UHGV virus genome: UHGV-0074586
Length of the DNA stretch: 11,801 bases
Strand: one strand, 5' to 3'
Origin: a virus
Shown one piece after another: positions 1 to 11,801 of this stretch. The notes under the pieces were generated by a model. It was not told the DNA's origin. It ran no database searches and saw only the letters and a program-made list of their open reading frames with translations. Positions within the stretch are counted from its first letter, which is position 1, and the number at the start of each line of letters is the position of its first letter. A program made the translations under genes and the position numbers.

Positions 1-1
1 T

Positions 2-145
2 GAAAAAATGGGATTAGTAGGAATATCAGGTGACACTGCATTGAAGGCCACGAATAAAGCTGCCATGCGTCAGGCTCTGAAAGAAGCAATGGTTCCTATC
101 CCGGTATTTTATTGTGTAAATACCCGAGGTATTTATTTTTGGTGA
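2..145 (+). CDS. C-terminal fragment of a hypothetical protein whose ORF enters from beyond the left edge
   Basis: Frame is open from position 2 to a TGA at 143..145 (...MGLVGISGDTALKATNKAAMRQALKEAMVPIPVFYCVNTRGIYFW). No family recognised. An AT-rich hairpin plus T-run overlaps the last codons. Confidence 0.3.
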   Translation, partial: EKMGLVGISGDTALKATNKAAMRQALKEAMVPIPVFYCVNTRGIYFW

Positions 146-264
146 AATAATGATAAGCAAATGAATACAAAGGATATTTATTTTTTCGGTGTCTGCTTGT
201 TCAGTGCTTTTTATGCGGGATATGTGAAGTGGATCCCGATAGCTATTGCTGCCGGGATTATGGG

Positions 265-654
265 TTAGTCAGCGAAGGTTAAGACGAGAATTACCTTAAT
301 GATGTCTGCTACAACAGACACGGCCATAGATAAACCAAAGACAATCCAAGCCATAGAGATGTCTTCACTACCATCGTATAGAGTTCCGTAATCACTGGTG
401 TAAGGCGTAAATGTCGCGCCTTGATACAACAGGTATAAGCTTGAACCATAGAGGATAAATGCAGATATCCCTTGTATTGCTATGATCACTAGAATCATGA
501 AACGAGCTGATCTATGCGCCCAAGCCTGGCTTATTTTTTCTGATAGAGATTTCGCAATAAAAGCATGCGCTAAGCCGTAAATTGTCGAGATTGACAACAT
601 CCCAAAAAAGCTTGCTATAGCGGTTCCAACCATAATCGCCCCTTGCGTGATCAA
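265..654 (-). CDS. small multi-pass inner-membrane protein in the rexB position, immediately downstream of cI; candidate superinfection-exclusion or abortive-infection protein
   Basis: 129-aa ORF with about four hydrophobic helices. Its start overlaps the cI stop in an ATGA arrangement (651..654), implying co-translation with the repressor. Function inferred only from position and topology. Confidence 0.6.
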   Translation of the reverse strand: MITQGAIMVGTAIASFFGMLSISTIYGLAHAFIAKSLSEKISQAWAHRSARFMILVIIAIQGISAFILYGSSLYLLYQGATFTPYTSDYGTLYDGSEDISMAWIVFGLSMAVSVVADIIKVILVLTFAD

Positions 655-1362
655 ACCAGCCTTAGTTTTGTCTCAATTGCAACGCCTATAATCTTGCAGT
701 TTCCATTGATTGGCACGAGAGGCCATGCAGGATTAAGTCCCTTGAGGTATTTATTTCCGCCGTCGATTATCAGCTTCTTGAATGTTGCTTCGTTAGAGTC
801 AGAAAGTTTTGCTATGACCAAGCTGCCGTTGATCGCCTCCCTTCCGGTATCGAAAAGAACGAATGTTCCCTCTGGAATGCTTAACCCAACCGGTGCCGTC
901 ATTGAATCACCTTCCACTTTAAGCCAGAACGCATTACCTTGAATATGCGCGTCAGACTCAAGCCAAACATCTATGTCTTTAATGGTGTATGGTTCGCATG
1001 CTTCACACCACGAGCCAGCCTGGATACTGCTTAACACCGGATACCTCTTTCCTGCTCTGTATTCCCCTGCATACCTTACGTTGGCATCGCTCTTAAGGCT
1101 TTCTGCCTGTTCTGCAACCTTGGCAGCAATTGACTGGCTAAAATCAGCAATTGAGACTTGCAACAGTCGTGCAAAACCAGATGCAACCGTTTAGCGCGTT
1201 TCTGCCATTAAGATAATGCCCTACCGCTCCTTGGGTGATACCCAGTTCATCAGCGATTGAGTATTGGGTTATTCCCAATTCTTTCTTTTTTGACTCATAC
1301 AAAGCCTTAAGCCGCTTAGCGTCTTCGAGCTGTTCTGTCGTCAGTGATTTTTTATTTTCCAT
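651..1362 (-). pseudogene. cI: cI-like repressor (N-terminal HTH plus C-terminal S24/LexA-type autocleavage domain) interrupted by a frameshift near 1185..1191
   Basis: ORF 1144..1362 encodes an HTH domain resembling lambda cI ([26 protein letters not shown]...). ORF 651..1163 in another frame encodes the S24 domain (Ala-Gly site, GDSMTAP serine motif, FKKL lysine motif). Reading by hand, removing one C from the CC at about 1187..1188 restores a continuous ...[23 protein letters not shown]... protein. Confidence 0.75.
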
Positions 1363-1368
1363 AGCTTA

Positions 1369-1397
1369 ATTCTAATAGCTAAGGTACTTAAACTAAA
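1369..1397 (-). promoter_or_regulatory. PRM-like maintenance promoter for cI (leaderless transcript)
   Basis: On the minus strand a TAGAAT -10 hexamer (plus coords 1374..1369) lies 6 nt upstream of the cI ATG at 1362, as in lambda where the cI mRNA starts at the AUG. The -35 (about 1392..1397) is weak and abuts operator A, consistent with an activator-dependent promoter. Confidence 0.4.
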
Positions 1398-1438
1398 AAT
1401 ACCCTGAGTATTGATTGCTTTGAATACCTGTAGTATTC
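1398..1438. promoter_or_regulatory. two palindromic operator sites (OR2-like AATACcctgaGTATT at 1398..1412; OR1-like GAATACctgtaGTATTC at 1422..1438)
   Basis: Two near-perfect inverted repeats sharing the half-site AATAC/GTATT, centres about 25 bp apart, overlapping the -35 and -10 of the rightward promoter. A third site was not found. Confidence 0.6.
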
Positions 1439-1439
1439 T
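1411..1439 (+). promoter_or_regulatory. PR-like early rightward promoter (TTGATT, 17-bp spacer, TATTCT)
   Basis: -35 at 1411..1416 and -10 at 1434..1439 with 17-bp spacing, about 30 nt upstream of the cro start and overlapped by both operators. Confidence 0.5.
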
Positions 1440-1468
1440 TTGTTCATGGTTAATAACGGAGAGTGCAT

Positions 1469-1663
1469 ATGATTCGAATGACACTTGCCGATTACGCCAA
1501 AATCCATGGACAGGCTAAAGCAGCCAGTGACTTTGGTGTAATCCAGTGCGCTATCAGCAAGGCCATTCTGGCAGGCCGTAACATTATGGTTACGGTAAAG
1601 CCTGATGGCAGTGTGATTGGAGAGGAAGTTCGTCCTTTCCCAAGCAACAAGAAAAACAAATAG
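1469..1663 (+). CDS. cro: Cro repressor
   Basis: 64-aa product ([64 protein letters not shown]) is colinear with lambda Cro. GGAG at 1458..1461 is 7 nt upstream of ATG 1469; the ORF-track start at GTG 1463 is probably too early. Confidence 0.88.
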
Positions 1664-1669
1664 TAACAC

Positions 1670-1715
1670 CGCTCTTTAACAGTCATGGTCCTCATTCCCG
1701 CCGAAATGCGGGAAT
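1670..1715 (+). promoter_or_regulatory. nutR-like N-utilisation site: boxA (CGCTCTTTA, 1670..1678) and boxB-like hairpin (1694..1715)
   Basis: boxA matches the lambdoid consensus just after the cro stop. The hairpin has an 8-bp stem ATTCCCGC/GCGGGAAT and loop CGAAAT. Confidence 0.55.
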
Positions 1716-1720
1716 ACAAC

Positions 1721-1755
1721 GCGCATAAGTTGATGCGCATAACTTCTTATTTGTT
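1721..1755 (+). terminator. tR1-like element: perfect hairpin GCGCAT-aagttg-ATGCGC followed by a T-rich tract
   Basis: 6-bp perfect stem at 1721..1738 then ataacttcttatttgtt, sitting between nutR and cII as tR1 does in lambda. The T-tract is interrupted, so intrinsic strength is doubtful. Confidence 0.35.
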
Positions 1756-1771
1756 AAGGAAATACTTACAT

Positions 1772-2050
1772 ATGGAACTTACAAGTACTCGCAAGAAAGC
1801 GAATGCAATTACAAGCAACATCCTGAATCGAATTGCTGTACGTGGTCAGCGAAAGGTTGCCGACGCGTTAGGGATTAATGAATCGCAAATTTCGCGATGG
1901 AAAGACAGCTTCATCCCCAAAATGGGAATGCTTCTGGCTGTTCTTGAATGGGGTGTTGAAGACGAGGAGTTGGCGGAACTGGCTAAGAAAGTAGCCAAAA
2001 TGCTGACAAAAGAAAAAGCCCCGAAGAACGGCGAATTCTTCGAGGCCTGA
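1772..2050 (+). CDS. cII: CII transcriptional activator
   Basis: 92 aa with the ...SQISRWK...IPK...MLLAVLEWGV... core of lambda CII. The upstream ttaaggaaatacttacat-ATG matches the lambda cII initiation region as I recall it. The ORF-track start at 1685 would run through nutR and tR1 and is rejected. Confidence 0.85.
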   Translation: MELTSTRKKANAITSNILNRIAVRGQRKVADALGINESQISRWKDSFIPKMGMLLAVLEWGVEDEELAELAKKVAKMLTKEKAPKNGEFFEA

Positions 2051-2084
2051 TGTAGAAAGACTGGATCAATCCACAGGAGTAATT

Positions 2085-2246
2085 ATGACAAAACGTCGTA
2101 AGAAATACCAGGAAAAAGAAGAGATTCGACACCCTGATTCACCTGAGGGATTAGTGGTAGCCGCAGCAAATAACAGGGCGTTCGCAGAGCGCCTTGTTGG
2201 TGTTTACAGACTAGCAAAAGCAGGAGTGAAACATGGGCGTCGTTAA
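2085..2246 (+). CDS. small basic hypothetical protein (53 aa) between cII and the replication genes
   Basis: AGGAG at 2075..2079 is 5 nt upstream of ATG 2085. Product MTKRRKKYQEKEEIRHPDSPEGLVVAAANNRAFAERLVGVYRLAKAGVKHGRR. Overlaps the O-like start by 14 nt. Below the ORF-track size cutoff. Confidence 0.4.
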   Translation: MTKRRKKYQEKEEIRHPDSPEGLVVAAANNRAFAERLVGVYRLAKAGVKHGRR

Positions 2247-3123
2247 GTTAGCTGATTACAGGCATAACCCTGTACAACATCAGGAGGCATCCAGTATGGG
2301 GTATGTCTCTATACACCGCCAGTTTATGGACAGCAGGCTCTATAAGGACTCTCAGGCAGTACATCTTTGGCTTCACTTAATCCTCAAGGCTAATCACGAA
2401 TCTACTGTCGTCAATACGGATATCGGTCCGATAACTGTTGATCGCGGTCAGATGATAACTGGACGCCCGTCGCTGGTCAGAGAAACATTCATCCCCGACA
2501 ACAAAGTTCGGAGCTTATTACGGACTTTTGAGTCGAAAGGGATGCTTAATATTTGCTCGATGGGGAAGAAATTTAGCCTGTTTACAATCGTTAAATATGA
2601 CGATTTTCAGGCAAAAAATTGTCCAACGGTTGTCCAACGGTTGTCCAACGCAAACACCAGTAATGGCGAGGCTCTCAGCGGAGATTGTCCAACGGTTGTC
2701 CAACGGTTGTCCATAAACAATAATATAAATAATATCTCTAATACTGACGTATTAGAGAGTGCCACAGCAGACAAAAAGTCTGACAAGAAAAAACCTTCCG
2801 TTAGCTGTCAGGATGTTGTCGATGCTTACCACGAAATCCTTCCTGAAGCGCCAAGAATCCGCGCACTGAATGACAAGCGTAAAAACCAGATCCGAACGTT
2901 CTGGCGCAAAGCCGGAGTGATAACCCGCCAGCTTGACGGGCATGGGTTCACGATGCAGGACTGGAGAAATTATTTGAGCTACGTAGGCGAAAATTGCCGA
3001 TGGATGTTCGAAGAGCGTCCAAACCATCAACGCGGAACCGTCTGGCACAAAAAGGGATTTGATTTCCTGCTTAACGACAATACCTACCTGAAAGTTCGTG
3101 AGGGTGAACACGATGACCGATAA
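2233..3123 (+). CDS. O-like replication initiation protein (iteron-binding), origin embedded in the gene
   Basis: 296 aa. AGGAG at 2222..2226 precedes ATG 2233. Position after cII, internal iterons and translational coupling to a DnaB-type helicase indicate a lambda O / P22 gp18 analogue. Not sequence-similar to lambda O as far as I can recall. Confidence 0.7.
   Translation: MGVVKLADYRHNPVQHQEASSMGYVSIHRQFMDSRLYKDSQAVHLWLHLILKANHESTVVNTDIGPITVDRGQMITGRPSLVRETFIPDNKVRSLLRTFESKGMLNICSMGKKFSLFTIVKYDDFQAKNCPTVVQRLSNANTSNGEALSGDCPTVVQRLSINNNINNISNTDVLESATADKKSDKKKPSVSCQDVVDAYHEILPEAPRIRALNDKRKNQIRTFWRKAGVITRQLDGHGFTMQDWRNYLSYVGENCRWMFEERPNHQRGTVWHKKGFDFLLNDNTYLKVREGEHDDR
2619..2717. repeat. origin iterons: two clusters of three tandem 11-bp repeats TTGTCCAACGG (2619..2651 and 2685..2717)
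   Basis: Direct repeats with 11-bp periodicity, last copy of each cluster degenerate, clusters separated by about 33 bp, followed by an AT-rich stretch. They fall in the linker of the O-like protein (repeated translation PTVVQRLSN). Confidence 0.8.
2713..2760. promoter_or_regulatory. AT-rich DNA-unwinding-element-like tract flanking the iterons
   Basis: ataaacaataatataaataatatctctaatactgacgtattagagag is almost pure A/T directly 3' of the iterons, the classic lambdoid ori layout. Confidence 0.5.
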
Positions 3124-4549
3124 TTTTTATGCGCCGCCCCATAGCATCGAGGCAGAGCAGGCGGTGATTGGTGGATTGCTTCTGGATGATGACAGCAGTG
3201 AGCGCGTCCAGAAAGTTCTGGCGATGCTGAAGCCTGACTCATTTTACAGCCGGCCACACAAAATCCTTTTCGAAGAAATAACCAGAATGCACCGGGAGCA
3301 AAAGCCAGTAGATGGCCTGACGCTTTTCGATGAGCTGGAGCGTAAATCGTTAACGGCGTCTGTTGGCGGTTTTGCTTATATCGCTGAGATCGCAAAGAAC
3401 ACGCCAAGCGCAGCAAACATCGTTGCCTATGCAATGCAGGTTCGTGAAACCGCAATGGAACGCTACGCCATCAACCGCATGACTGAAGCGACGGAATTGC
3501 TCTATTCCCGCAACGGAATGACTGCAACACAGAAGTACGAAGCTATTCAGTCGATTTTCACGCAACTGACAGACCATGCAAAAACCGGATCGCGTCGCGG
3601 CCTTCGCTCATTTGGTGAGGTCATGGAAGACTGGGTTAGCGACCTTGAGAAGCGATTTGACCCGTCAGGCGAACAACGAGGAATGAGCACAGGGATCCCA
3701 TCGCTGGACAGGATGCTGTCACCGAAAGGTCTGGTGAAAGGCTCTCTGTTTGTCATTGGCGCTCGCCCTAAGATGGGGAAAACGACGCTATACAGCCAGA
3801 TGGCAATCAATTGCGCAGTGCATGAGAAAAAGCCAGCTCTGATGTTCAGCCTTGAAATGCCAGGTGACCAGATACTGGAAAAACTGGTAGGGCAGAAGTC
3901 TGGTGTTAACCCGAATATTTTTTACCTTCCGGCGACAAATGACGCCGATGACGGCTATCAGGGTGATTACGATGGCGACTTCAACAGGGCGATCGAAACA
4001 GCAAATCGCTTGAGTGAAATCGACCTGCTTTACATCGACGACACGCCGGGATTATCTCTGGCTCAAATCGTCAGCGAAAGCCGTCGAATCAAGCGAGAAA
4101 AAGGATGTGTTGGCATGATTCTGGTCGATTACCTGACACTAATGACCGCTGAGAAGGCCGATCGCAACGACCTTGCTTACGGCATGATCACCAAAGGACT
4201 GAAGAACCTTGCCAAAGAGCTTGATTGCGTTGTTGTGCTTCTGACACAGCTTAACCGCGCACTGGAAAGCCGAACCAATAAACGCCCATTACCAAGTGAC
4301 TCACGAGATACAGGGCAGATTGAACAGGATTGCGATTATTGGGTGGGGATCCATCGTGAAGGTGCTTTTGATGACAGCGTTCCTCCTGGTGAAACCGAAC
4401 TAATCCTTCGCCTCAATCGTCATGGCAATACCGGCACGGTGTATTGCATACAGGCAAATGGCGCTATTTATGACACAGACCAACAGTCTGCTGAAATGCG
4501 CCGCCGTGAACGCGAGGAACCGCAGTCCAAGAAGAAAGGAGGGTTCTGA
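3113..4549 (+). CDS. DnaB-family replicative helicase (P22 gp12-type)
   Basis: 478 aa with a DnaB N-terminal signature (HSIEAEQAVIGGLLLD), Walker A GARPKMGKT and a RecA-like C-terminal core. ATG 3113 overlaps the O-like stop (3121..3123); GAGGGTG lies upstream. The ORF-track GTG at 3098 is less likely. Confidence 0.9.
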   Translation: MTDNFYAPPHSIEAEQAVIGGLLLDDDSSERVQKVLAMLKPDSFYSRPHKILFEEITRMHREQKPVDGLTLFDELERKSLTASVGGFAYIAEIAKNTPSAANIVAYAMQVRETAMERYAINRMTEATELLYSRNGMTATQKYEAIQSIFTQLTDHAKTGSRRGLRSFGEVMEDWVSDLEKRFDPSGEQRGMSTGIPSLDRMLSPKGLVKGSLFVIGARPKMGKTTLYSQMAINCAVHEKKPALMFSLEMPGDQILEKLVGQKSGVNPNIFYLPATNDADDGYQGDYDGDFNRAIETANRLSEIDLLYIDDTPGLSLAQIVSESRRIKREKGCVGMILVDYLTLMTAEKADRNDLAYGMITKGLKNLAKELDCVVVLLTQLNRALESRTNKRPLPSDSRDTGQIEQDCDYWVGIHREGAFDDSVPPGETELILRLNRHGNTGTVYCIQANGAIYDTDQQSAEMRRREREEPQSKKKGGF

Positions 4550-4653
4550 TGACCATCTACATCACTGAGCTAATAGCAGGGTTATCGTTACTAATGGTTC
4601 TTACTGTATATATTATTAAGTATATTCTTTATGCGAATAAAAAAACTAATTGA
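4549..4653 (+). CDS. 34-aa hydrophobic single-pass peptide, translationally coupled to the helicase stop
   Basis: ATG 4549 overlaps the helicase TGA (4547..4549) with AGGAGG at 4538..4543. Product MTIYITELIAGLSLLMVLTVYIIKYILYANKKTN. Caveat: AT-rich DNA yields hydrophobic ORFs by chance. Confidence 0.3.
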   Translation: MTIYITELIAGLSLLMVLTVYIIKYILYANKKTN

Positions 4654-5242
4654 TCACGATGAGCTTCTGTCAACATTATCATATGACTCAGAAACAGGAA
4701 TATTTAAATGGCTAAAAACAAATTCAGTAGTAAGAGTAAAAGGTAGTATTGCTGGAGGTGTTAGTGGTGGTTATATATGCATTAGCATAAATAATGTTTT
4801 GTATTATGCGCATAGACTTGCTTGGTTCTATGTATACAAAAAATGGCCTCCTAAGTTTATTGATCATGTAAATGGGAACAGACTTGACAATAGGATTTCA
4901 AATCTAAGACTGGCAACAGAAGAGCAGAATGCAAGAAACATTGTAGGGAATAGGTTAAACACATCCGGTGCGATTGGAGTGTCTTGGTATAAGCCAACTG
5001 GCAGGTGGAAGTCTTATGTTGGTTATAAAAATAAGACAATATCGTTAGGGTATTTCGATAGCAAAGAAGATGCAGCATTCATAGCAGCACTAGCAAGAAA
5101 GAAACTATATGGAACTTATGCGAGTAAAGCACTTAATTGCGAGCATGAGCTTTTATCTCAATTTAATAATGATGAGGATAAACTTGCGGAATATCTTAAG
5201 GAAAAATCTAAAAGGACTCGAAAGCGTGTTAAAAAAAGATAA
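4631..5242 (+). CDS. HNH homing-type endonuclease with C-terminal AP2 DNA-binding domain
   Basis: HNH motif (YYAHRLAWF...IDHVNGNRLDNRISNLRLATEEQNARN) and AP2-like segment (GVSWYKPTGRWKSYVGYKNKTISLGYFDSKEDAAFIAA). The gene sits in a visibly AT-rich island unlike its neighbours. Confidence 0.85.
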   Translation: MRIKKLIDHDELLSTLSYDSETGIFKWLKTNSVVRVKGSIAGGVSGGYICISINNVLYYAHRLAWFYVYKKWPPKFIDHVNGNRLDNRISNLRLATEEQNARNIVGNRLNTSGAIGVSWYKPTGRWKSYVGYKNKTISLGYFDSKEDAAFIAALARKKLYGTYASKALNCEHELLSQFNNDEDKLAEYLKEKSKRTRKRVKKR

Positions 5243-5274
5243 AGGCCTGCTGGTAATCGCAGGCCTTTTTATTT
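5241..5274 (+). terminator. rho-independent terminator after the HNH gene
   Basis: Perfect 8-bp GC-rich stem AGGCCTGC/GCAGGCCT with an 8-nt loop, then TTTTTATTT. An A-run upstream makes it potentially bidirectional. Confidence 0.7.
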
Positions 5275-5290
5275 GGGGGAGAGGGAAGTC

Positions 5291-5731
5291 ATGAAAAAAC
5301 TAACCTTTGAAATTCGATCTCCGGCACATCAGCAAAACGCTATTCACGCAGTACAGCAAATCCTTCCAGACCCAACCAAGCCAATCGTAGTGATCATTCA
5401 GGAGCGCAACCGCAGCTTAGACCAGAATCGGAAGCTTTGGGCTTGCCTTGGTGACGTCTCTCGTCAGGTTGAATGGCATGGTCGCTGGCTGGATGCAGAA
5501 AGCTGGAAGTGCGTTTTTACAGCAGCATTAAAGCAGCAGGATGTTGTTCCTAACCTTGCCGGGAATGGCTTTGTGGTAATAGGCCAGTCAACCAGCAGGA
5601 TGCGTGTAAGCGAATTTGCGGAGCTATTAGAGCTTATACAGGCATTCGGTACAGAGCGTGGCGTTAAGTGGTCAGACGAAGCGCGACTGGCTCTGGAGTG
5701 GAAAGCGAGATGGGGAGACAGGGCGGCATGA
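5291..5731 (+). CDS. ninB: NinB (Orf-family recombination mediator)
   Basis: 146 aa from ATG 5291 ([34 protein letters not shown]...), essentially lambda NinB as I recall it. Confidence 0.9.
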
Positions 5732-5910
5732 GACGACAGCGACGAAGCATCACCGACATCATCTGTGAAAACTGCAAATACCTTCCAACGAAACGCTCCA
5801 GAAATAAACGCAAGCCAATCCCAAAAGAATCTGACGTAAAAACCTTCAACTACACGGCTCACCTGTGGGATATCCGGTGGCTTAGAGAACGTGCGAGGAA
5901 AACAAGGTGA
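5728..5910 (+). CDS. ninE: NinE
   Basis: 60 aa ([52 protein letters not shown]...). ATGA overlap with the ninB stop. Confidence 0.8.
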
Positions 5911-6077
5911 TTGACCCAAATCGAAGTTACGAACAAGAAAGCGTCGAGCGGGCTTTAACGTGCGCTAACTGCGGTCAGAAGCTGCATGTGCTGGAAGTTC
6001 ACGTGTGTGAGCACTGCTGCGCAGAACTGATGGGCGATCCGAATAGCTCAATGTACGAGGAAGAAGACGATGAGTGA
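5907..6077 (+). CDS. ninF: NinF (small CxxC...CxxC protein)
   Basis: GTG start overlapping the ninE stop (GTGA). 56 aa ([55 protein letters not shown]). Below the ORF-track cutoff. Confidence 0.7.
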
Positions 6078-6792
6078 GTTAATGAATGGCAATGCCATCA
6101 AAATGACAAGCATTGAAATCGCTGAGTTGGTGGGTAAGCGTCATGACAATGTGAAACGTACCATCGAAACGCTGGCTAAAAATGGTGTTATCCGGCTTCC
6201 TCAAATTGAGGTTTCCGAAAGAATCAATAACTTAGGGTTCAATGTTCAGTACGAGCATTACGTCTTCGAGGGCGAACAAGGTAAGCGAGACAGTATTGTC
6301 GTTGTTGCCCAGTTGTCGCCAGAGTTCACCGCTCGCCTTGTTGACCGCTGGCGAGAGCTTGAAGAAACTGCGGTTAATATCCCCAAAACGCTACCAGAAG
6401 CGTTGCGCCTTGCTGCTGATCTTGCTGAGCAGAAAATGCAACTGGAAAACCAGCTCGCAATTGCCGCACCTAAAGTTGAGTTTGCCGATCGCGTTGGCGA
6501 GGCCAGCGGAATTTTGATTGGAAACTTTGCAAAGGTTGTTGGTATTGGTCCAAACAAACTGTTTGCGTGGATGCGCGATCACAAAATCCTTATTGCTTCA
6601 GGTTCCCGGCGCAATGTGCCAATGCAGGAATATATGGATCGCGGCTATTTCACAGTGAAAGAAACAGCGGTCAACACAAATCACGGAATACAGATATCGT
6701 TCACCACAAAAATCACCGGGCGTGGTCAACAGTGGCTGACCAGAAAGTTGCTCGATAACGGAATGCTGAAAGTAACAGGGGAGGCTGCTTAA
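6070..6792 (+). CDS. Rha-family regulatory protein with KilA-C/ANT-type C-terminal domain (antirepressor-like)
   Basis: 240 aa. N-terminal segment (IKMTSIEIAELVGKRHDNVKRTIETL) resembles the Rha domain; C-terminal half (NFAKVVGIGPNKLFAWMRDHKIL...EYMDRGYFTVKE...TTKITGRGQQWL) resembles the antirepressor C-terminal domain. Assigned from memory. Confidence 0.65.
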   Translation: MSELMNGNAIKMTSIEIAELVGKRHDNVKRTIETLAKNGVIRLPQIEVSERINNLGFNVQYEHYVFEGEQGKRDSIVVVAQLSPEFTARLVDRWRELEETAVNIPKTLPEALRLAADLAEQKMQLENQLAIAAPKVEFADRVGEASGILIGNFAKVVGIGPNKLFAWMRDHKILIASGSRRNVPMQEYMDRGYFTVKETAVNTNHGIQISFTTKITGRGQQWLTRKLLDNGMLKVTGEAA

Positions 6793-7082
6793 TGGCTAAC
6801 CTACGCAAAGAAGCACGCGGCAGAGAATGCCAGGTACGTATTTACGGCGTATGCAATGGCAACCCTGAAACTACAGTTCTGGCACATTACCGGATGGCTG
6901 GAATTTGCGGAACGGGAATGAAGCCTGACGACCTGATCGGCGCATGGGCTTGTAGCGCGTGTCACGATGAAATCGACCGACGCACCCATAACCTCGACAA
7001 CAAAGACGCCAGACTTTACCACCTCGAAGGCGTAATCAGGACGCAGGCGATACTGCTGAAGGAGGGGAAGATTAAGCCATGA
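6792..7082 (+). CDS. small Cys/His-rich protein of the kind found upstream of rusA in lambdoid nin regions (DUF1364-like)
   Basis: 96 aa with a C-x8-C...H...C...CxxCH pattern. TAATG overlap with the upstream stop and ATGA overlap with rusA. Family name from memory. Confidence 0.55.
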   Translation: MANLRKEARGRECQVRIYGVCNGNPETTVLAHYRMAGICGTGMKPDDLIGAWACSACHDEIDRRTHNLDNKDARLYHLEGVIRTQAILLKEGKIKP

Positions 7083-7441
7083 ACGAATATCAGTTTGTGC
7101 TTCCATACCCACCGTCGCTGAACACCTACTGGCGAAGACGGGGAAGCCAATACTACATCAGCGATAAAGGCCAGAAATACCGAAAAGACGTTCAGCAAAT
7201 CATCCGCCAACTCAAGTTAGACATTTTCACCAAATCACGACTCCGCATCAAAGTCATCGCAGACGTTCCAGACTCCCGCCGCCGCGACCTCGATAACATC
7301 CTGAAAGGTTTACTCGATTCCCTTATCCACGCCGGATTTGCGGAAGACGACGAGCAATTCGATGACATTCGCGTAATTCGTGGTGTGAAAGTACCAGGCG
7401 GACGGCTTGGAATAAAAATCACCGAACTGGAGAACGCATGA
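7079..7441 (+). CDS. rusA: RusA-family Holliday junction resolvase
   Basis: 120 aa, colinear with E. coli RusA as I recall it, including the RRRDLDN catalytic motif and GGRLGIKITEL C-terminus. Confidence 0.88.
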   Translation: MNEYQFVLPYPPSLNTYWRRRGSQYYISDKGQKYRKDVQQIIRQLKLDIFTKSRLRIKVIADVPDSRRRDLDNILKGLLDSLIHAGFAEDDEQFDDIRVIRGVKVPGGRLGIKITELENA

Positions 7442-7626
7442 ACGCCACAATTCAAACGATACCAGAGCTTCTTATCCAGACACGAGGCAATCAGACCGAA
7501 GTGGCGAGGATGCTTTCCTGCGCAAGAGGAACAGTGCTCAAGTACAACCGAGACAGCAAAGGCGAGCTTCACGTAATAGTTAACGGCGTCCTGATGGTCA
7601 AACAGGGCAAGAGGGGAAGACGATGA
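7438..7626 (+). CDS. ninH: NinH
   Basis: 62 aa with the ...GNQTEVARMLSCARGTVLKY...VIVNGVLMV core matching lambda NinH. ATGA overlaps on both sides. Confidence 0.8.
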   Translation: MNATIQTIPELLIQTRGNQTEVARMLSCARGTVLKYNRDSKGELHVIVNGVLMVKQGKRGRR

Positions 7627-8111
7627 GCATAAGAGAACTAAACCTCACCAAAGAGCAGCACGAGTGGCTGAATGGCTGGCTTGAACTGTGGGGCGCATGG
7701 GTTTATTCAGGTCGTCTGGAAAAGCGCATGAGCAGCGTAATAGCGAAGTTCATGGAGAGCGTAGAGCCGGGAAGAGTTATGACAAGGCCAATGTGCAATG
7801 ATGATGATGGAATGTTGATTTCTCAGGTCGTCGATTCCGTCATGTACATTGACAAGAAAGCCTTTGGAATCCTCCTCAGCTACTACGCTCATGGCTCTTC
7901 CAAGCACGCCATTGCATCTTACTATCATCGCGTCGCAAGACCTCGCAAGATGTTATGCCGTGGCGGCGGGCGCATTCAAAAACCATCGCTCGCAACCTGT
8001 CGACGGGAAGTTGACGAAATCCTTAATGCCTCGTTGTTTATGATTTACCCGGTTCTGGATAGTGCGTTTAAAAACCGGAAACGTGTAGAGAAAATTAAAC
8101 ATGTAGCATAG
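7623..8111 (+). CDS. Q-like late-gene antiterminator (non-lambda Q type)
   Basis: 162 aa, last gene before the lysis region. WGAW...RPMCNDDDGMLIS...YYAHG motifs resemble the Q proteins of 933W/82-type phages, not lambda Q. Assigned from memory and position. Confidence 0.65.
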   Translation: MSIRELNLTKEQHEWLNGWLELWGAWVYSGRLEKRMSSVIAKFMESVEPGRVMTRPMCNDDDGMLISQVVDSVMYIDKKAFGILLSYYAHGSSKHAIASYYHRVARPRKMLCRGGGRIQKPSLATCRREVDEILNASLFMIYPVLDSAFKNRKRVEKIKHVA

Positions 8112-8117
8112 AACGTG

Positions 8118-8198
8118 TTGACATCATTGAGCAAATGAGCAACACTATTGGCATAAGCTGCCGTTAGTGACTCTTAAGTTGCAACGGTGGCTTTTTTT
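8118..8198 (+). promoter_or_regulatory. candidate late promoter (consensus -35 TTGACA at 8118..8123) followed by a hairpin plus T7 run (8157..8198)
   Basis: Perfect TTGACA 7 nt after the Q stop; no convincing -10. Stem GCTGCCGTT/AACGGTGGC (two G-U pairs, 17-nt loop) is followed by TTTTTTT ending 5 nt before tRNA 1. Confidence 0.3.
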
Positions 8199-8202
8199 AT
8201 TT

Positions 8203-8277
8203 GGGTCAGTCGTATAAAGGTCATTACTGAAGGCTGTTAACCTTCTTATCGTGGTTCGAGTCCACGCTGTCCCGCCA
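8203..8277 (+). tRNA. tRNA-Asn (anticodon GUU), phage-encoded
   Basis: Hand-folded cloverleaf: 7-bp acceptor stem with one T-T mismatch, perfect anticodon stem GAAGG/CCTTC with loop CTGTTAA, perfect T-arm CGTGG-TTCGAGT-CCACG, encoded CCA. The D-stem has only 3 pairs. Confidence 0.6.
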
Positions 8278-8282
8278 AATAT

Positions 8283-8358
8283 GCTGGTTTAGCTCCAATG
8301 GTAGAGCAGTCGCCTTGTAAGCGAATGGGTAGCGGTTCAAGTCCGTTAACCAGCACCA
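8283..8358 (+). tRNA. tRNA-Thr (anticodon UGU), phage-encoded
   Basis: Hand-folded cloverleaf: perfect acceptor stem GCTGGTT/AACCAGC, D-arm GCTC-CAATGGTA-GAGC, anticodon loop CTTGTAA, T-arm AGCGG-TTCAAGT-CCGTT, discriminator A and CCA. Confidence 0.7.
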
Positions 8359-8519
8359 TAACTGAGCCGTAGCCACTGGCTATCCTGAATTCATCAGTGA
8401 TAGTTATGCTGCGGCCTTCTACACATGACCTTCGTGAAAGCGGGTGGTTCAATTCTGCTGCCTTCTTCACGTTAAAAGAGGAATTAGGCTTCGAAAATGC
8501 AAAAACTTGCAAAAATGAC

Positions 8520-8548
8520 TTGAAAACGAGTTTTGAAACTGCATAATT
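8520..8548 (+). promoter_or_regulatory. sigma70-like promoter (TTGAAA, 16-bp spacer, CATAAT) preceded by phased A-tracts
   Basis: -35 at 8520..8525, -10 at 8542..8547 with a TG just upstream. The preceding 40 bp holds repeated TGCAAAAA/TTGAAAAC A-tracts at roughly helical phasing (8492..8526). Confidence 0.35.
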
Positions 8549-8630
8549 CCTATATGCTCGGACGTCAAAGGCGAAAGAGCTTACCCACCAGCGAAGATGC
8601 CTTGTGCGGAGCGGTGGGAAACACATTCAA

Positions 8631-8658
8631 GCCCTTGCAGAAATGCAGGGGCTTTTTT
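8631..8658 (+). terminator. strong rho-independent terminator in the leader upstream of the insertion operon
   Basis: 9-bp stem GCCCTTGCA/TGCAGGGGC (one G-U pair) with GAAA tetraloop, then TTTTTT. It lies 30 nt upstream of the first operon ATG and inside the ORF-track 5' extension that starts at TTG 8533. Confidence 0.7.
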
Positions 8659-8688
8659 ATTGGCTCAGTGCCACCAGGTGAACACCGT

Positions 8689-9240
8689 ATGCACACGGCG
8701 ATCATTTGCGCTTCCGGACCTTCCCTCACCCACGACGACTGCCAGAAAGCCATTGGCGCTGGATTACCCGTTATTGCGGTGAATTCTTCATGGCGCGCGG
8801 TGCCGGGATGCTCTCACATTTACGCGGGTGATCTGCGCTGGTGGGATGTGAACATTCCCGCGCTGCCCGATGGCCCCGAACGCTGGTCATGTAACCGGAG
8901 AGCACACACCCGATACGGCGTGAGCCTCTTCCCGACAGATACCAGCGGCACATTCAATTCGGGGCAGAGAGCAATCCTGTTCGCTCACTGGCTGGGTGCC
9001 AGTAGCATCATCCTGCTGGGCTTCGATTGCTCAATCTCAAACGGTAGTCACTGGCACGGCGATCACACAGTCCTCGATAACCCGACAGCAGCGAACGTAA
9101 AGCGCTGGCATGGCGAGTTTGCCCGGGTTGCGGCGCAGCTGCGTGGAAGCGTCAATATCATCAACAGCAGCCGCCAGACGGCGCTTAATTGCTTTCGTCG
9201 CTTACCTCTTGAAGCTGCGATCAGCGAGGTTACATGCTGA
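8689..9240 (+). CDS. hypothetical protein with Cst/GT42-like (DUF115/MptE-like) CMP-ulosonate transferase-fold signatures
   Basis: 183 aa from ATG 8689 (AGGTGA 7 nt upstream). IICASGPSL...PVIAVNSSW and FNSGQRAILFAHWLGASSIILLGFDCSISNGSHWHGDH parallel the GNGPSL, RCN, TSG...LGY...LSGIDFY and SHYIGH motifs of Campylobacter Cst-type sialyltransferases as I recall them. Fold-level inference only. Confidence 0.45.
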   Translation: MHTAIICASGPSLTHDDCQKAIGAGLPVIAVNSSWRAVPGCSHIYAGDLRWWDVNIPALPDGPERWSCNRRAHTRYGVSLFPTDTSGTFNSGQRAILFAHWLGASSIILLGFDCSISNGSHWHGDHTVLDNPTAANVKRWHGEFARVAAQLRGSVNIINSSRQTALNCFRRLPLEAAISEVTC

Positions 9241-10175
9241 ATCCTCCGATTTACATCGATGGCATGCTGGGAATGGGAGATACCATTTACCAGCGCGCTT
9301 TCGTCAAACAACTGCCTGCTGGGACATTCATTAAGACGGCATGGCCGGAGCTTTACGAAGATCTGCCGGTGAAAGTTGTCCGAAGTGACACCACGCTCAG
9401 AACGCAGCGTAAAAATGAGTTTCGCAGTTCGGCAAAGTTTTATCCGCCGCCATCGCCACGACAGACGAAGCGAATATTTTACGGACCGTATGATCTGCGG
9501 CGCGGTTCGATATTTGATGCGATGCGACGCCAGTTCGGCGTAACGCCAGCAGCGCTTGATTTGCCATCCTTTGGCCCGTCGCAGTTTACGCACCAAAAGC
9601 CGATCGCCGTTATCCGTCCGGCAACGGTTCGTTCTGAATGGCGTAGCGACTCCCGAAACCCTGACCCCGATTACCTCCTGCGCGCATCGAGAATCCTGCG
9701 GAAACATTTCTGCGTGATTAGCGTTGCTGATTTGCAGGACGGGGAAGAGTGGCTGGTGGGCGAAGAACCAGAGGCGGATCTGAAAATGCACGCTGGCGAG
9801 CTCAATATCAAAGAGCTGATGCGCCTGGTTGAGCATGCCGCTGTCGTGGTTACGCCTGTTGGCTGGGCGCTGCCCGCTGCCATTGCGTACAAAACACCTG
9901 TTTACGTTGTCGCTGGTGGGCGCGGTGGGCATAACGCTCCCGAGATAGTCACCGATCCGGCGATGGATTTATCCCGCGTTGGCTGGGCAATCCCGGACAA
10001 TTATTGTCGCTGCGAAGCGTGGGATCACCATTGCGACAAACGCATCTTCAACTTTGATTCAAAATTCGAGACATGGCTGAATGAAGTCGTTTTATCAGGA
10101 ACTGAACAGCGGGCTGGTATTCCTCCCGGAGCTGGGCATCGGTCGTTATCCGGTTCCGGCATCACGCCCGTATGA
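9234..10175 (+). CDS. hypothetical protein with glycosyltransferase family 9 (ADP-heptose:LPS heptosyltransferase)-like fold; 3' boundary uncertain
   Basis: ATG overlaps the upstream stop (ATGCTGA). N-terminal IYIDGMLGMGDTIYQRAFVKQL and C-terminal ELNIKELMRLVEHAAVVVTPVGWALPAAIAYKTPVYVVAGG follow the GT9 pattern, but the canonical DTGPMHLAAA motif is replaced by TPVGWALPAAIA. The ORF runs 95 nt into the next gene. Confidence 0.45.
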   Translation: MLNPPIYIDGMLGMGDTIYQRAFVKQLPAGTFIKTAWPELYEDLPVKVVRSDTTLRTQRKNEFRSSAKFYPPPSPRQTKRIFYGPYDLRRGSIFDAMRRQFGVTPAALDLPSFGPSQFTHQKPIAVIRPATVRSEWRSDSRNPDPDYLLRASRILRKHFCVISVADLQDGEEWLVGEEPEADLKMHAGELNIKELMRLVEHAAVVVTPVGWALPAAIAYKTPVYVVAGGRGGHNAPEIVTDPAMDLSRVGWAIPDNYCRCEAWDHHCDKRIFNFDSKFETWLNEVVLSGTEQRAGIPPGAGHRSLSGSGITPV

Positions 10176-10690
10176 CGAGCAGTATTTCGCGAAGTATCAG
10201 CAGCTTGCCGACACCGAAACGGGCAGAGCCTTAACGCAATCCCGTATTGAGCTGGTGGCGCGCCATTTTCACGGTCCTGTTCTCGACGTTGGTATCGGTG
10301 CCGGTCAGTTCGTCTCTACCCGACCGGGAACGCTTGGGTATGACGTTAATCCGGCTGGTATCGCCTGGCTGAACGAGCGGGGCGCATTCGCTGACCTCTA
10401 GTCAGGGGCGCGCGCTGACGATGTGGGATGTCCTGGAGCACATCGACGAGCCGGAGCTGGCGGTACAGCAGGCTACAGAGTTTGTTTTCGTGTCGATCCC
10501 CATTTTTACCGATGCCGGAGACATTCTTCGCTCGCACCATTTCAGGAAGAACGAGCACATCTGGTATTTCACTGACGACGGTATTAAGCGCTGGTTTGCA
10601 GAGCAGGGCTTCGAATGCGCTGAACAGAACACAATCGAATGCCAGTTAGGGCGTAAGGGCGTCGCTTCGTACGCTTTCCGCCGCGTTTAG
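10081..10690 (+). pseudogene. class I SAM-dependent methyltransferase split by a frameshift near 10395..10402
   Basis: ORF 10081..10401 carries motif I (VLDVGIGAGQF) and an acidic beta-2 end (GYDVNP). ORF 10421..10690 in another frame carries the DVLEH motif. The frame upstream of 10421 reads ...SSQGRALTMWDVLEH, so one indel just before the TAG at 10399..10401 would restore a single protein of about 200 aa. Confidence 0.6.
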
Positions 10691-10764
10691 TCCCCTCTTA
10701 GCCCATTGCATTTGGGTTTATTCCAGTTTCGCACACATCACCCGCAAACAGGCGAGGTCAACCT

Positions 10765-10923
10765 ATGAATAGCTCTCACGGGATTTTTGAACAAACCATG
10801 AAATGGATCGCGCTATATCTGCCGTCAGTTTACGCCGGGTTATGCGCTCTGGGCATCTCAGCGCTTATCGACATACGCGCAGGGAAGCCGAAACTCTACA
10901 CCGCCACTGGCGCGCTAAATTAA
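10765..10923 (+). CDS. 52-aa small membrane protein immediately upstream of the holin gene
   Basis: GAGGT at 10754..10758 is 6 nt upstream of ATG 10765. Product MNSSHGIFEQTMKWIALYLPSVYAGLCALGISALIDIRAGKPKLYTATGALN has one predicted TM helix. Its stop coincides with the point where lambda-like sequence resumes. Confidence 0.45.
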   Translation: MNSSHGIFEQTMKWIALYLPSVYAGLCALGISALIDIRAGKPKLYTATGALN

Positions 10924-10954
10924 ATAGAGCAAATCCCCTTATTGTGGGTAAGAC

Positions 10955-11278
10955 ATGAAGATGCCAGAAAAACATGACCTGTTAGCCGCCATTCTCGCGG
11001 CAAAGGAACAAGGCATCGGGGCAATCCTTGCGTTTGCAATGGCGTACCTTCGCGGCAGATATAATGGCGGTGCGTTTACAAAAACAGTAATCGACGCAAC
11101 GATGTGCGCCATTATCGCCTGGTTCATTCGTGACCTTCTCGACTTCGCCGGACTAAGTAGCAATCTCGCTTATATAACGAGCGTGTTCATCGGCTACATC
11201 GGTACTGACTCGATTGGTTCGCTTATCAAACGCTTCGCTGCTAAAAAAGCCGGAGTAGAAGATGGTGGAAATCAATAA
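10955..11278 (+). CDS. S: holin S (S107/S105 dual-start class I holin)
   Basis: 107 aa, essentially lambda S as I recall it. Met1-Lys2-Met3 dual-start motif at 10955..10963 and a CCCC...GGG stem upstream. Confidence 0.95.
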
Positions 11279-11738
11279 TCAACGTAAGGCGTTCCTCGAT
11301 ATGCTGGCGTGGTCAGAGGGAACTGATAACGGACGACAGAAAACCAGAAATCATGGTTATGACGTCATTGTAGGCGGAGAGCTATTCACTGATTACTCTG
11401 ATCACCCTCGCAAACTTGTCACGCTAAATCCGAAACTCAAATCAACAGCCGCCGGACGCTACCAGCTTCTTTCCCGTTGGTGGGATGCCTACCGCAAGCA
11501 GCTTGGCCTGAAAGACTTCTCTCCGAAAAGCCAGGACGCTGTGGCATTGCAACAGATTAAAGAGCGTGGCGCTTTACCGATGATTGACCGCGGTGATATT
11601 CGTCAGGCAATCGACCGTTGCAGCAATATCTGGGCTTCACTGCCGGGCGCTGGTTATGGCCAGTTCGAGCATAAGGCTGACAGCCTGATTGCAAAATTCA
11701 AAGAGGCTGGCGGAACGGTCAGAGAGATTGAGGTATGA
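11262..11738 (+). CDS. R: endolysin R (lytic transglycosylase)
   Basis: 158 aa, essentially lambda R as I recall it ([39 protein letters not shown]...). Start overlaps the end of S as in lambda. Confidence 0.95.
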
Positions 11739-11801
11739 GCAGAGTCACCGCGATTATCTCCGCTCTGGTTATCTGCATCATCGTCTGCCTGTCATGGGCT
11801 G
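11735..11801 (+). CDS. Rz: spanin Rz, 5' partial (runs off the right edge)
   Basis: ATGA overlap with the R stop. N-terminus [22 protein letters not shown] matches the lambda Rz signal-anchor. Confidence 0.85.
   Translation, partial: MSRVTAIISALVICIIVCLSWA

Follow-up and report, generated by a model that had tools for sequence, protein, structure and literature searches.

A five-base gap in the cI repressor gene of an HK620-immunity prophage contig is probably a product of metagenome assembly

The viral sequence UHGV-0074586, which is referred to below as the window and was analysed over its whole length of 11,801 nt, carries a cI repressor gene that is read in two frames instead of one. The question was whether the phage itself has lost an intact repressor or whether bases were lost when the sequence was assembled.

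Both pieces of the gene are located on the minus strand. An ORF of 72 aa at 1362..1144 forms the N-terminal piece and is closed by TGA at 1146..1144 (tca on the plus strand). Its residues 1-58 (MENKK...GRNALN) are native (1362..1189) and are followed by 14 out-of-frame residues. The C-terminal frame (651..1190) has 179 codons, is open only below TAA at 1193..1191 (tta on the plus strand), and comprises the linker and the peptidase domain. These two stops, and a division of the gene into separate ORFs for the HTH and the autocleavage domain, had been described in an earlier sequence-only reading, and both were confirmed. Pfam comparison assigned the first ORF to PF01381 HTH_3 (27 bits, cut-off 23) and the second to PF00717 Peptidase_S24 (E 2.6e-24, 85.6 bits). 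Residues 3-58 were aligned with helices 1-3 of lambda cI. In the alignment with full-length lambda cI (3BDN), the Ala117-Gly118 cleavage site was found at 1019..1014, the serine of the GDSM motif (S155) at 905..903, and the lysines of the FKKL motif from residue 197 onwards. Alignment with lambda cI (3BDN; 1LMB for the N-terminal domain on operator DNA) extended over residues 3-232 with an E-value of 1e-51, and the two-domain plan, the Ala-Gly site and the motifs of the Ser/Lys dyad were all matched. Differences from lambda cI are the operator specificity, which is that of HK620 immunity, and the break itself, which strips helices 4-5 from the N-terminal piece. Judged by these comparisons, the gene is an ordinary lambda-type cI of HK620 immunity with an N-terminal HTH and a C-terminal S24 self-cleavage domain.

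The surroundings of the gene correspond to those in HK620 (AF335538, cI AAK28868), with an hkaS-like ORF, OL and OR operators, cro, and cII. Downstream of cI, an hkaS-like ORF of 122 aa (265..633, minus strand) was without Pfam match. Operator positions were transferred from the HK620 annotation, using window = 2906 minus HK620 position for OL and window = 2901 minus HK620 position for OR. OL3 (140..156), OL2 (118..134), OL1 (93..109), and pL were placed at 93..156 on the minus strand, and OR3 (1373..1389), OR2 (1397..1413), and OR1 (1422..1438) with pRM/pR at 1373..1438 between cI and cro. The genes cro (1469..1663, plus strand; PF09048, E 3.6e-26) and cII (1772..2050, plus strand; PF05269, E 8e-43) are intact. 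The genes cI and cro diverge from a tripartite OR between them, and OL is located on the opposite side. OL1 itself is incomplete, since a chimeric join cuts off the phage sequence at 103.

Alignment with HK620 and E. coli VCSW5 revealed that the lesion in cI is a deletion of 5 bp at 1188..1189 (minus strand), comprising bases that are present in all relatives. The coding strand of the complete form reads AAAC(GTTGA)GGTTGC and the plus strand GCAACC(TCAAC)GTTT, the bases in brackets being missing in the window. AAAC is directly followed by GGTTGC in the short form, and the form with the five bases is AAACGTTGAGGTTGC; the junction string of the deleted form is AAACGGTTGC. The junction has 1 nt of microhomology, no repeat, and no homopolymer, and the sole local run is CC. 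One uninterrupted ORF is missing in the window and was obtained only after the five bases had been put back. The resulting 238-aa protein is identical to WP_000428318, the common allele, and one residue apart from HK620 cI (A66/T66). In comparison to both, the coding sequence of the window is without GTTGA after codon 58, which leaves the 72-aa ORF and the 179-codon frame.

The sequence-only reading had proposed that removal of one base from the CC at 1187..1188 gives a continuous cI-like protein and that a homopolymer sequencing error might be the cause. The first part holds, since removal of one C opens a frame of 236 aa, and this is what speaks for a single-base error. The true lesion, however, consists of five non-repetitive bases; the relatives differ by five bases and not by one, and the CC pair is not a homopolymer run. 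Moreover, the 236-aa protein lacks V59-E60, which are invariant in every cI relative checked. The alignments refute a single-base error, and next to no weight is given to it.

By the helix limits of lambda repressor, N58 is situated after helix 3 of the five-helix N-terminal domain. Judged from its reading frame, the first product would lose helices 4 and 5, the linker, Ala117-Gly118, and the Ser/Lys dyad. The earlier suggestion that an HTH-only fragment could still bind the operators found little backing, as the native sequence ends at N58 and helices 4 and 5 are replaced by the out-of-frame residues. Neither folding nor useful operator binding is likely for a fragment of this kind.

Comparison with cI alleles of the same immunity type, a check named in the sequence-only reading, showed that all of them carry the five bases. 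A cI-region query of 761 bases matched 766 bases in 146 of 146 E. coli complete genomes and in 16 of 16 phage records, at identities not higher than 99.3%. With a junction-centred search, 145 E. coli genomes were found, all without the deletion. GTTGA was present in 62 of 62 IMG/VR contigs, and cI was intact in 21 of 21 metagenome contigs. The deletion was hence seen in 0/146 E. coli complete genomes, 0/16 phages, 0/62 IMG/VR contigs, and 0/21 metagenome contigs. Its junction string was not found in GTDB genomes or IMG/VR, and an exact look-up of the 72-aa product returned only the window's own contig, NODE_2034. A mosaic boundary, at which another immunity type would share the C-terminal domain of cI and thereby make the assembly graph branch, was considered and rejected, as the matches in all 146 E. 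coli genomes extend over the full gene, with no case confined to the C-terminal part.

A functional split, either by programmed ribosomal frameshifting or by use of the HTH and S24 fragments as separate proteins, has nothing more in its favour than the existence of two ORFs. The split is not conserved in relatives (0 of approximately 245 related alleles), the N-terminal piece stops after helix 3 of a five-helix domain, and TTG is the earliest start codon available in frame to the second ORF. On these grounds, a functional split is scarcely credible.

A look-up of the O protein led to E. coli GCA_024353925.1 (JAHASK010000043.1), in which the same prophage is inserted beside proB-proA-thrW and is collinear with positions 103..11801 of the window. 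Over these 11.7 kb, the two sequences differ by 7 SNPs and exactly two 5-bp deletions. In GCA_024353925.1, cI (238 aa) and a methyltransferase gene (204 aa) are both intact. Two intragenic 5-bp deletions against 7 SNPs is not a usual ratio for natural divergence. Between positions 1256 and 3975, zero differences from the intact prophage (L133) were recorded.

The collinear prophages were also compared with respect to other features. One of the 7 SNPs is located inside tRNA-Asn (position 8228; T in the window, G in the relative) and could be another error of low coverage. This tRNA-Asn(GTT) and a tRNA-Thr(TGT) are encoded at 8203..8358, directly downstream of Q. Between the gene for the DnaB-like helicase and ninB, a free-standing gene (4631..5242) encodes an HNH_3 + AP2 endonuclease of 203 aa. 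The otherwise collinear prophages of W284 and GCA_024353925.1 possess this gene and those of ET450 and STEC384 lack it, a pattern as expected for a mobile homing endonuclease.

The second deletion disrupts a class I SAM methyltransferase gene (10081..10690, plus strand), the intact relative of which encodes 204 aa. A frameshift at approximately 10400 had been noticed in the sequence-only reading, with the advice that it be judged together with that in cI; the advice proved sound, since this lesion is a 5-bp deletion as well. In comparison to E. coli I3 and 11 of 11 IMG/VR contigs, ACGCC is missing between 10399 and 10400 in CCTCT(ACGCC)AGTCAG. The short form, in which CTCTA is followed by GTCAG, has the junction string CTCTAGTCAG, and the form with the five bases is CTCTACGCCAGTCAG. 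In addition, a T>G exchange relative to I3 and these IMG/VR contigs was found at 10406, 6 nt downstream of the junction, and the same exchange is present in contigs assembled with MEGAHIT. A window-wide scan against the nearest relatives gave no further window-specific multi-base indel.

Common causes of both deletions were sought in the local sequence. A GC-rich stem with a 10-nt loop (-18 kcal/mol, z -1.5; CGCTGAC / GTCAG, then GGCGCGCGC) is predicted at the methyltransferase site, and the gap falls into the loop. Hairpin-driven loss was discarded as a common cause, as the cI site is without notable structure (z -0.5 and 0.0). A site-specific nuclease or shared motif was discarded as well: CGTWGAGGT occurs on one strand at both sites, but the deletion offsets differ, and flanks aligned by hand on a 4-5-nt gap are dissimilar. 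Joining through a spurious overlap needs self-similarity at a shift of 5; inspection by hand revealed none at either site, and this route was ruled out.

The methyltransferase gene is part of a three-gene moron cluster (8533..10690) between Q with the tRNAs and holin, which is the slot of stx in Stx phages. The cluster encodes an MptE-like/DUF115 protein (below the Pfam cut-off), a 313-aa protein without Pfam match, and the class I SAM methyltransferase. It is rare: among 5426 E. coli complete genomes, 15 gave a match, and most of the cluster was covered in only 4. A terminator-like hairpin with T run, GCCCTTGCAGAAATGCAGGGGCTTTTTTATT, is located at 8628..8665 and shows a G-run polymorphism (GGGG in the window, GGG in I3); one Logan contig (L011) begins exactly at this hairpin. 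In a related phage lineage (95% identity), contigs of 17 kb from Logan SRR33884538, SRR33701456, and SRR32022194 (L090, L091, and L092) carry a stop at W96 (TGG>TAG) of the methyltransferase, at the site homologous to 10366..10368 of the window. Going by these contigs from other samples, the methyltransferase gene has been inactivated independently and decays in nature.

The origin of the window was established by exact look-up of the 72-aa product and by the O protein look-up. It is identical to the whole ENA contig ERZ773198 NODE_2034_length_11801_cov_3.312021, a metagenome contig of SPAdes or metaSPAdes style with a k-mer coverage of 3.3. Its left end is foreign: positions 1..123 (plus strand) are identical in 123 of 123 bases to the chromosome of Enterocloster aldenensis (NZ_BAABZL010000001.1; L003 3480..3602) and look, judged by eye, like an internal piece of an ATP-grasp-like ORF. 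No E. coli match was obtained for positions 1..110, and in alignments with relatives phage homology starts at 103. The 21-mer GGTATTTTATTGTGTAAATAC (103..123) is common to Enterocloster aldenensis and the OL region of the phage, and 21 is the smallest default k of SPAdes. Given the full identity of the first 123 bases and the shared 21-mer, the left end is, on comparison of the sequences, an inter-species assembly chimera joined via this 21-nt string. The ERZ27262435 contig L094, which belongs to the same strain, extends to the left of 103 with true phage DNA. A defective prophage from which pL, N, and int had been deleted was considered, as homology ends inside OL1; the Enterocloster aldenensis chimera and the normal continuation in ERZ27262435 led to its rejection.

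Other assemblies were inspected at both junctions; ERZ773198, ERZ914886 (ERR589762), and ERZ27262435 may derive from the same reads. Among MEGAHIT contigs of the same strain, ERZ27262435 k119_46105 begins with GGTTGCATC at position 1188 and matches the window over 1086 nt at 100% identity. At 10400, the contigs ERZ27262435 k119_36572 and ERZ914886 k127_22636 terminate with GACCTCTA, and ERZ27262435 k119_28612 and ERZ914886 k127_8904 begin with AGTCAGGGG. Two Logan contigs stop one base before these ends. The MEGAHIT ends are exactly the last or first bases common to the intact and the deleted allele, at one end for cI and at both sides for the methyltransferase gene. They fit a two-allele branch in the reads, or flanks which were left unconnected and then glued by the SPAdes scaffolder.

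To control for selection bias in such look-ups, contig ends in other samples were also counted. At the cI junction codon, 12 contig starts were found, some of them duplicates, as compared to 5, 8, and 3 at control codons. Of these 12 (window 1187..1189; L093-L102), 5-7 begin at one and the same base (GGTTGC) on differing SNP backgrounds. The excess in unrelated samples is weak, and the idea of a general hot spot for contig ends at the cI junction was rejected. At the methyltransferase gap, 2 starts and 4 ends were counted, as compared to 0 and 0 at control positions shifted by one and two codons. The ends at 10399/10400 come from at least four other metagenome assemblies, and two contigs have their start at 10400 (L010-L013, L088, L089); these may reflect either a spot that is difficult to sequence or the presence of two alleles.

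Taken together, the cI gap probably stems from the assembly rather than from the phage: in a thin and partly chimeric contig, this junction would be one that lacks support. The uniqueness of the deletion, the intact twin, the 3.3x coverage, and the proven misjoin all favour an artefact, and same-strain contigs break at both junctions. An error had been named in the sequence-only reading as an equally possible cause, and it was right to treat an error as a serious alternative. The read graph would have been broken or branched at 1188/1189 in cI and at 10399/10400 in the methyltransferase gene, and the assembler would have emitted a path five bases short at both. A Poisson model (k-mer coverage 3.3, k = 55, reads of 90-150 nt, 11.7 kb) predicted 1.7-4.6 breaks of a 21-mer path and 0.3-2.3 zero-coverage gaps; hence several bridged gaps are to be expected in NODE_2034. 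Low coverage combined with interspecies repeats is described as a trigger of intergenomic errors in the metaSPAdes paper (PMC5411777). In mock viromes, assemblers produced a mean of approximately 8 indels per 100 kb, and up to approximately 40 for low-abundance genomes (PMC6350398); two indels in 11.7 kb are within this range, which counts for an artefact. The window resembles the published chimeras and indel errors of short-read metagenomes (PMC5411777, PMC6350398) in its low coverage, the 21-nt join of two species, and an indel rate within the benchmarks. We infer the absence of solid read support for the deleted path as well as the route of the assembler. Several points count against an artefact: a concrete assembler mechanism was not reproduced, gaps of exactly 5 bp at both sites would be a coincidence under random coverage gaps, the MEGAHIT ends at the bases of allele divergence may mean that reads with the deletion really exist, and the T>G exchange is shared by the MEGAHIT contigs.

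A real 5-bp cI deletion in part of the population is a possibility which we hold clearly less probable than an artefact. A cI-null variant, forming clear plaques and obligately lytic on non-immune hosts, would then exist beside the wild-type lysogen; MEGAHIT would break at the two-allele bubble, and metaSPAdes would pick the deleted arm. In the other assemblies, every contig end seen lies exactly at a point where the intact and the deleted allele part or meet again, and metaSPAdes is known to collapse small-indel strain bulges into one path (PMC5411777). The T>G exchange beside the methyltransferase junction could belong to a complex mutation, and the W96 stop in other samples indicates natural decay of that gene. 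However, a minority allele demands two independent 5-bp deletions in a lineage 7 SNPs away from an intact prophage, with no linkage of both to the same molecules, and the deleted cI was never assembled elsewhere in the GTDB, IMG/VR, and metagenome contigs searched. In addition, a given 5-bp deletion is too rare to reach a sizeable fraction of reads unless the mutant actively propagates. A deletion that is real and fixed, in a decaying defective prophage or in a virulent derivative no longer in need of cI, appears improbable. Two frameshifted genes in 11.8 kb and a left arm that at first sight is deleted, with phage homology ending inside OL1, would suit such decay, but what looks like a lost left arm is the Enterocloster chimera, and the same strain runs on normally in ERZ27262435. 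Outside the two 5-bp gaps, all genes agree with those of the intact prophage, with no more than 7 SNPs, and no host context is provided by the ends of the contig. Moreover, a population containing the deleted allele only would be assembled through both junctions, at which MEGAHIT breaks. From lambda biology, a cI-null prophage with intact pR, cro, O, DnaB-like helicase, Q, and lysis genes would be expected to be lethal to its host. The sequence-only reading had further considered that a real mutation would mean a clear-plaque or virulent phage or a defective prophage; no positive support for this was obtained, and the intact twin and the breaks in other assemblies speak against it.

The artefact that we prefer has a direct consequence for the use of such sequences: a frameshift seen in one metagenome contig of low coverage calls for read support before it is interpreted as biology. 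The contig also illustrates how a Firmicute and the operator region of a coliphage can be fused through a common 21-nt string. Lambdoid phages that form clear plaques through spontaneous cI frameshifts have been known for decades and were isolated as live phages. A frameshift after the HTH would abolish dimerisation, cooperativity, and RecA-dependent cleavage and lead to clear plaques. In contrast to those mutants, the allele of the window is known from one 3.3x contig only. If the deletion were true, the phage would be a clear-plaque mutant that could not be maintained as a prophage, with pR, cro, O, helicase, Q, and lysis genes being intact. It is doubtful that both deletions are real and reside on the same molecules, which would make the phage a cI-null, methyltransferase-null derivative of the thrW prophage, lytic in the human gut beside the wild-type lysogen. 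The shared and unusual size of 5 bp would then point to a specific mutational process, e.g. a staggered 4-5-nt break and end joining on replicating phage DNA. A true cI deletion would mean that a temperate phage has just turned obligately lytic in a gut community, which would be of some ecological interest.
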